Below are positions 284-1,259 of a DNA stretch of 8,857 nt, piece by piece; position 1 is the first letter of the stretch; each line of letters opens with the position of its first letter. The stretch lies in the IMG/VR virus record IMGVR_UViG_2534681772_000005, positions 1-8,857 of that record. One strand, written 5' to 3'. The position numbers and the translations under genes are program-made. The notes under the pieces are model-generated. The model saw nothing but the letters and a program-made list of their open reading frames with translations, was not told the DNA's origin and did not search any database. This DNA comes from a virus. Lineage: Duplodnaviria; Heunggongvirae; Uroviricota; Caudoviricetes.

Positions 284-337
284 CCTGTTTACCTCTTTCT
301 CAGGAAGTTTAGTCTCCAGGATTCCCGGGGCGGTTCA
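1..337 (-). mobile_element. IS3-family insertion sequence (IS629/IS1203-like), partial: left terminal inverted repeat plus 5' part of orfA; element continues beyond the window start
   Basis: Reverse complement of 284..337 reads TGAACCGCCCCGGGAATCCTGGAGACTAAACT..., a TG-initiated terminus typical of IS3-family elements. It is followed by an orfA start (ATG at 283..281) whose product begins [23 protein letters not shown]..., which I recognise from memory as IS629/IS1203 OrfA. It is identical to the copy at 8507..8857 except for one base. Confidence 0.85.
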
Positions 338-1259
338 CTTCCGCGCCACCAACTGCCTTTGTGAATTGCTTCGTCATATTCCCGGCGTCATTGAAAAAGC
401 CAATGATGTCGCCATGATGTTTCTCAATCCAGGAACCAAAAGCCTTCATTCCGTCAATAACGTCAGGAGCAAATGCCATGGCTAAATTTTGCTTTAATCG
501 GGAAAACTCTGAATCAAGTTGACCAAGAGTGGCGGCAACCTTTTCCTGCTCTTTTACCTGCTGTGCGGTAATACGGGATTTCTTTGTTTCTGAATCGACA
601 AGCTGCTTAAGTTCCCCTGATTTTATTTTAGCGGCATCTGTCGGATCGAACCCTGCGGCCGCCATCACCTGCATCAGGTTTTCTTGAGAATGAGTCTTGC
701 CATAGCGAGAAAACTCAGCAAGAGCCTTGTTTGGGTCACCGAGCTTATTGATATCTAATCCGGTACGAGCGCCAAGAACCAGCAAATTTTGGGCAGCGCC
801 AGTAAGCCCTCCCATAACAGTTGGATCGGCAATATTTGCCAAAGCCATTCTGGCATTCCCAGAAGATGAAATGAACGAGTCACCGTTAAGACCAGCCTGC
901 CGAAATCCCCGCTGAACACCAAACATCTTATTAACATCAGAGCCGAAAAACTTGGCCTGTTGACTGGCTCTCACAATTTCGTTGGCAGTAGATGTAAAAA
1001 GTTGCTTGATTCCATACAACCCGGCGCCGATTCCCAAAAATCCAGCGGCTGCTGTTGTCACGTTGCGGAAGGCTGAAACAGCGGTTTTACCGAACCTCTC
1101 CGTTTCCTGTCGCTGTTTTTCAAGTTCCTTTAGCCTTTCCTTCTCAGCCCTGGAAAGATCTTTGTTTAATTTACTAACTTCATCTTTTACTTTCCGTTTT
1201 CCATTCAGGAATTCATCGGCCTTAATTGTGACCTTGTAGGCCAACTCATTGATAATCAT
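309..1259 (-). CDS. Phage tail tape measure protein, N-terminal ~307 codons; 3' end interrupted by the IS (last 8 codons and stop are IS-encoded)
   Basis: Lies immediately downstream of the chaperone pair with an ATGA start/stop overlap at 1256..1259 and an AGGAG RBS 5 nt upstream. The N-terminus is a charged coiled-coil-like stretch ([24 protein letters not shown]) followed by a Gly/Ala-rich hydrophobic segment, as in tape measure proteins. The reading frame crosses the IS boundary at 337 and ends NRPGNPGD-stop inside the IS terminal repeat. Confidence 0.6.

Follow-up and report, generated by a model that had tools for sequence, protein, structure and literature searches.

The 8,857-nt stretch of DNA analyzed here (hereafter the window) most probably carries the 5′ half of a 604-codon tape measure gene cut by an insertion sequence (IS), within a prophage that was recently inactivated by IS insertion; we give this account as a whole a probability of roughly 0.9. 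An exact-protein look-up identified the window as the entire draft contig AIHG01000044.1 (GCA_000250335.2), both ends of which lie inside a multicopy IS. The gene belongs to an E. coli prophage whose structural module is that of a GF-2-like myovirus and whose early genes are lambdoid, and a 1310-bp IS3-family element has entered the gene after the first base of codon 308, with the IRL end facing the 5′ half. Translation would then add a valine and the residues NRPGNPGD before stopping at a TAA in the IS terminal repeat, giving a product devoid of the hydrophobic linker, the SLT domain and the conserved C-terminal ~55 residues of the intact protein. At the opposite contig end, a second, inverted copy of the IS cuts a head gene of the DUF2213 type (scaffold/protease). 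Two observations are new relative to the sequence-only reading that preceded this analysis: the whole contig ends in IS on both sides, and the second IS copy truncates the DUF2213 gene between positions 8506 and 8507.

IS junctions at both ends of the window

The list of open reading frames contains a 316-aa ORF at positions 309–1259 of the minus strand (RefSeq WP_000586131.1), composed of 307 native codons (1259–339), a hybrid valine codon, the eight IS codons for NRPGNPGD and a TAA at 311–309. BLAST alignment of the window to the corresponding TW10590 locus (L001) returned a single gap-free block of 100% identity, in which window positions 338–8508 correspond to L001 8001–16171. As this block ends at 338, native sequence stops there and positions 1–337 are foreign, with the IS boundary between 337 and 338. 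Of the 604 tape measure codons, the native stretch (338–1259, minus strand) retains codons 1–307 plus the initial base of codon 308, and it is 100% identical to the TW10590 allele (WP_126687932.1). The IS-derived read-through (309–337, minus strand) contributes two bases of the valine codon, NRPGNPGD and the stop codon, all within the IS terminal inverted repeat; in hybrid codon 308, position 338 is native and positions 337–336 stem from the IS, and the TAA occupies IS nucleotides 27–29. In coding-strand orientation, the sequence across the junction is GGC GCG GAA G/TG AAC CGC CCC GGG AAT CCT GGA GAC TAA, where the uninterrupted TW10590 allele has GGC GCG GAA GAG GCT. The sequence-only reading had followed the frame from 1259 to an IS boundary at 337 and on through V-NRPGNPGD to a TAA at 311–309, leaving about 307 native residues. 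The ORF list, the BLAST alignment and the reading of the junction prove these coordinates exact, and counting against the uninterrupted TW10590 allele yields 307 native codons. Nor is 309–1259 a chance ORF, since hundreds of E. coli assemblies contain an annotated gene whose 5′ half is identical to it.

Copy A of the IS3-family element (1–337, minus strand) has its IRL terminus (TGAACCGCCCCGGG...) at 337 and retains the first 94 orfA codons (283–1), while copy B (8507–8857, plus strand) has its IRL terminus at 8507 and retains the first 99 (8561–8857); each runs off its contig end. As TG is common to the IS and the phage sequence, the copy B junction can be placed between 8506 and 8507 or up to between 8508 and 8509. 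The orfA product, to which the transposase portion in the window is confined, contains an HTH_Tnp_1 domain and matches the NCBIfam model transpos_IS3 (‘IS3 family transposase’), and full-length copies of the element are annotated as ‘IS3 family transposase, programmed frameshift’ and overlap an AL1L pseudoknot. A full 1310-bp copy on plasmid p948 of ETEC H10407 is 100% identical to window positions 8507–8857; its termini are TG...CA, its inverted repeats are imperfect, with 22 matches over the outermost 25 positions, and its length falls within the ~1.2–1.5 kb usual for the IS3 family. Both window junctions sit exactly at the canonical TG terminus of this 1310-bp element. Judging from the terminal sequence and the 1310-bp length, the IS is presumably of the IS629/IS3411 type; a literature search with the IS terminal string gave no match. 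IS-related sequence is present in 3,743 of 5,426 complete E. coli genomes.

Copy B removes the first ~92 codons of the DUF2213 (Pa193_gp24-like scaffold/protease) head gene, whose 3′ part extends over positions 7557–8506 of the minus strand. In TW10590 this gene is intact and encodes 408 aa; the window copy keeps only Pfam profile positions 72–167. As a side observation in TW10590, the gene that lies where a portal gene is expected, with terL on one side and the head morphogenesis gene on the other (L001 17320–18063; L006 16166–17701), is annotated as an ‘anti-CBASS protein Acb1 family protein’, a label that looks like a misnaming of the portal.

The two IS copies are inverted relative to each other and turn their IRL ends toward the phage block, a geometry that might reflect an IS-mediated rearrangement (an inversion, a deletion or a composite-transposon-like block), in which case the 3′ half of the tape measure gene would not simply follow 1.3 kb away, beyond the IS and a 3-bp duplication, and may have been lost or moved. 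This explanation, which is compatible with the main account, strikes us as possible, if on balance doubtful. It draws on an 8.17-kb phage block lying between inverted copies of the same IS that differ by one mismatch in 337 nt, and on the two IS3-family elements already in the TW10590 prophage, which means that recombination partners are present. However, two independent insertions in opposite orientation account for the data equally well, and the far sides of the IS copies lie outside the window and were not found in our searches. Far more doubtful still is a stronger version, by which the head and tail block at 338–8506 moves phage structural genes around the genome, either as a unit resembling a composite transposon or as the outcome of an inversion driven by the IS; were this the case, two independent knock-out insertions would not be the whole story.

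The IRR side of both copies falls outside the contig, and a contig with IS at both ends cannot show what lies beyond. A scan of a genome contig collection for the exact window junction gave zero matches, as did searches of a viral contig collection for the window junction and for the predicted junction of IRR with the 3′ part of the tape measure gene (0–8-nt duplication). Searching with the missing C-terminal 297 aa recovered contig-edge fragments only, and the listing of the 90% cluster contained no member attributable to GCA_000250335.2. The best match to these 297 aa (P0085) came from an unrelated Logan run.

Identity of the interrupted gene

Position, length and profile evidence support the gene as encoding a tape measure protein with an embedded lysin; the assignment rests on these three lines because no Pfam or NCBIfam tape measure family matches either the truncated ORF or the intact allele. 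Concerning position, the window carries on its minus strand the genes for a tail sheath protein (2324–3814; 496 aa; Pfam DUF3383/E217_gp31), a tail tube protein (1878–2312; Pfam E217_Gp32) and a tail assembly chaperone (1471–1878, 135 aa; with a −1 frame extension to 1256, 1256–1878; PHROG 1932, E = 1.1e-51; Pfam Phage_TAC_15), after which the 309–1259 ORF follows directly. A slippery heptamer, T TTT TTA, is located within the chaperone gene at 1495–1489 (minus strand), exactly where the −1 frame opens, and this frame ends at 1256, 4 nt inside the start of the tape measure ORF. Frameshifting by −1 is predicted to generate a G/GT-like chaperone fusion product of 207 aa, and such a chaperone frameshift arrangement reportedly precedes tape measure genes. 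In the intact relatives TW10590 and GF-2, the tape measure candidate is the sole long ORF between the tube and chaperone genes and the baseplate hub genes.

Among profiles, the truncated ORF gave E = 1.3e-99 with PHROG 2013, a ‘lytic tail protein’ family, though only over profile positions 3–303 of 657. Matches to tape measure PHROGs are weak: PHROG 9570 was hit at 2e-6 by the truncated ORF and at 1e-9 by the intact allele, and PHROG 2276 at 1.6e-7 by the intact allele only. A Pfam match to Peptidase_S8 (E = 0.0075, below the cut-off) was dismissed as noise. A family profile built from 24 sequences aligned with PB1 gp39 (860 aa, ‘lytic tail protein’) in hhalign (96.6%, E = 5e-10), colinearly over columns 24–517, a score of which a large share may stem from the SLT domain.

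With regard to length, tape measure proteins act as rulers whose size scales with that of the tail, at ~0.15 nm per residue. GF-2 gp18 has 568 aa and goes with a tail of 81.6 nm, and the Edno5 match spans 1752 nt (~583 codons) and goes with a tail of 74.5 nm (TEM values quoted in PMC6372524), corresponding to an approximate ~0.13–0.15 nm per residue, near the 0.15 rule.

The same two Edwardsiella phages, GF-2 and Edno5 (Gofduovirus; virion-forming temperate myoviruses), resemble the E. coli prophage in the succession of sheath, tube, chaperone, small ORF, tape measure, Arc/Ant module and baseplate genes. Their proteins (GF-2 gp18 and the Edno5 ‘lytic tail protein’) give full-length matches at 30–32% identity and have the SLT domain at the same relative position; unlike the window ORF, they are full-length and derive from functional phages, and they are distant in sequence. 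The Arc/Arc/Ant (P22 immI-like) module was observed between the tape measure and baseplate genes in both the E. coli prophage (L001 3633–6904) and GF-2 (L003 9627–11023), the E. coli version having an added P63C-domain gene. This placement inside a tail operon is conserved between the two and unusual.

More remote parallels are found in Pbunavirus (Pa193 gp41, PB1 gp39), which shares the embedded transglycosylase and whose sheath, tube, adaptor and terminator proteins fall into the same Pfam families (E217_gp27/28/31/32). In contrast to the family studied here, the Pbunavirus tape measure is ~250 aa longer and the similarity is at the profile level only; PB1 also has several extra genes between tube and tape measure, unlike the window. 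In Pa193, the tape measure protein gp41 (858 aa) has a transglycosylase domain, and the cryo-EM model includes its residues 840–858, which lie inside the tail lumen and bind the tail tip (PMC11456595). PB1 gp39 is presumably the Pbunavirus counterpart of Pa193 gp41.

Given annotations such as ‘lytic tail protein’, ‘transglycosylase’ and ‘endolysin’, the gene might instead encode a separate virion-associated peptidoglycan hydrolase, with another protein setting tail length; in that case, the truncation would make infection less efficient but leave tail assembly unaffected. The lack of matches in curated tape measure families also fits such a role, as does the confinement of PDB sequence matches to the SLT domain. 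Still, we consider this improbable: TW10590 and GF-2 possess no other long ORF between the chaperone and baseplate genes, the −1 frameshift chaperone directly precedes the gene, and the length of the protein fits the measured tails. In Pbunavirus, moreover, the SLT-bearing protein is the tape measure in the tail lumen, and its presumed PB1 counterpart aligns colinearly. The tape measure call made from the sequence alone hence finds backing in synteny, in the −1 frameshift chaperone, in the status of the gene as the sole long ORF and in the profile alignment with PB1 gp39.

The missing half of the protein

The uninterrupted TW10590 allele (WP_126687932.1) encodes 604 aa and is annotated as a ‘transglycosylase SLT domain-containing protein’. 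The first 307 codons of this allele, together with a further 7.2 kb of late genes upstream in its prophage (NZ_CP035850.1, argW/intS), are 100% identical to the window at the nucleotide level. Unlike the window copy, the allele also encodes the hydrophobic linker, an SLT domain and the conserved C-terminus. What the window ORF lacks amounts to 297 of the 604 residues (49%). The linker lies just past the break, at residues ~309–342 (LKLLAAAYVGSKLTGGALPPWLAGLIAYGLYLY). The SLT lytic-transglycosylase domain (PF01464) spans residues 402–498 of the intact allele (E = 3.5e-20), an architecture shared by relatives and by GF-2 gp18; a Pfam search of the 316-aa window ORF gave no match to it, because the domain lies past the IS. 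The C-terminal ~55 aa, with the consensus DNSQ-S-THIN-V-VNS-P-TVD-LT--I--Q--RS--N--FSSG, are kept in 22 of 22 full-length representatives, down to 23% identity.

One relative (P0026; 602 aa, 78% identical over the N-terminal 307 aa) combines the N-terminal half of the family and the C-terminal ~55 aa with a center that has neither an SLT domain nor any other Pfam match, a sequence pattern that suggests that the enzymatic module inside the tape measure has been swapped.

Used as the query of an exhaustive search against representatives, the 307 native residues gave 60 matches. Of 34 representatives covering most of the query, 31 were 568–738 aa long and aligned to it with their first ~300 residues, the exceptions to this range being distant homologues. 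The window protein falls into a 90% cluster of 444 members; among the members listed, full-length proteins have 604–605 aa and the others are shorter fragments, three of four of which are marked ‘partial’. No homologue naturally ending near residue 307 emerged from the exhaustive representative search, the short ones checked being cut by a contig end or split pseudogenes. Specifically, a 308-aa protein (P0067) is cut by the end of a 1811-bp contig, and a 365-aa Symbiopectobacterium protein (P0003) is followed by a separate 220-aa SLT ORF, which marks it as a split pseudogene. Judged against the intact allele of 604 aa and the range of 568–738 aa in 31 of 34 representatives, the ORF is truncated and far below expected length, as had been proposed from the sequence. 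That proposal, however, had derived the expected length from a sheath subunit of ~500 aa, an argument that is invalid because subunit size does not set tail length; its conclusion is right on other grounds.

The TW10590 prophage itself (L006, NZ_CP035850.1 2748000–2797000) is inserted at tRNA-Arg/intS (argW) and joins lambdoid early genes (cI/cro/cII, nin region, Q) to a GF-2-like myovirus late module. It, too, is damaged, with two IS3-family insertions and a frameshifted lysis gene.

Consequences for the prophage

Only one draft assembly documents the junction: the fusion protein WP_000586131.1 is recorded from one contig only, and a search of 5,426 complete E. coli genomes showed the junction in none of them. 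Together with the nature of the window, an 8857-bp draft contig ending in a multicopy IS on both sides, this might be taken to mean that the IS–phage junctions are artefacts of draft assembly, i.e. a contig with chimeric ends at a repeat, and that the gene is really intact. We judge this very unlikely. Both junctions lie at the canonical TG terminus, as expected of real transposition but not of random chimeras, and a few hundred bases of run-in to a repeat at a contig end are the usual mark of a true insertion in short-read assemblies. Even less credible is that the truncated protein serves as a functional short ruler or a domesticated fragment under selection: although the reading frame stays open as far as the IS and no damage is seen in the tail genes upstream, the protein lacks the C-terminal segment common to all full-length homologues and ends in IS-encoded residues, it occurs in one assembly only, with zero substitutions relative to the intact allele, as befits a very recent event, and the head gene is disrupted as well.

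Under the preferred reading of a genuine IS insertion into a tape measure gene, incorporation of the truncated product into a tail appears unlikely, because it ends in IS-encoded residues and lacks the conserved C-terminus, which in Pa193 binds the tail tip and hub. The IS would also separate the late operon from the baseplate genes. Taken together, the prophage would no longer be able to assemble tails or heads and is presumably defective. The sequence-only reading had spoken of a decaying prophage, a view strengthened by the second IS copy, which also cuts the DUF2213 head gene. The inactivation appears to be recent and purely IS-driven, as, apart from the two IS insertions, the phage DNA agrees with the intact allele at 100% identity and shows no point-mutation decay.

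IS elements are known to inactivate prophage genes in E. coli, IS629 in the prophages of O157:H7 being one example. The present case resembles these in that a 1310-bp IS3-family element with TGAACCGCCCCGGG termini lies inside prophage structural genes, and differs in that its insertion sites (tape measure codon 308 and DUF2213 codon ~92) are recorded in one draft assembly only. In kind, it is an ordinary, already known IS-mediated inactivation of a prophage gene that matters little beyond annotation. For annotation, WP_000586131.1, currently labeled ‘hypothetical protein’, would become a tape measure pseudogene truncated by an IS, and this copy of the prophage is best classed as defective. With zero substitutions relative to the intact allele, the locus would provide a clean, datable case of very recent prophage inactivation by IS3-family transposition.
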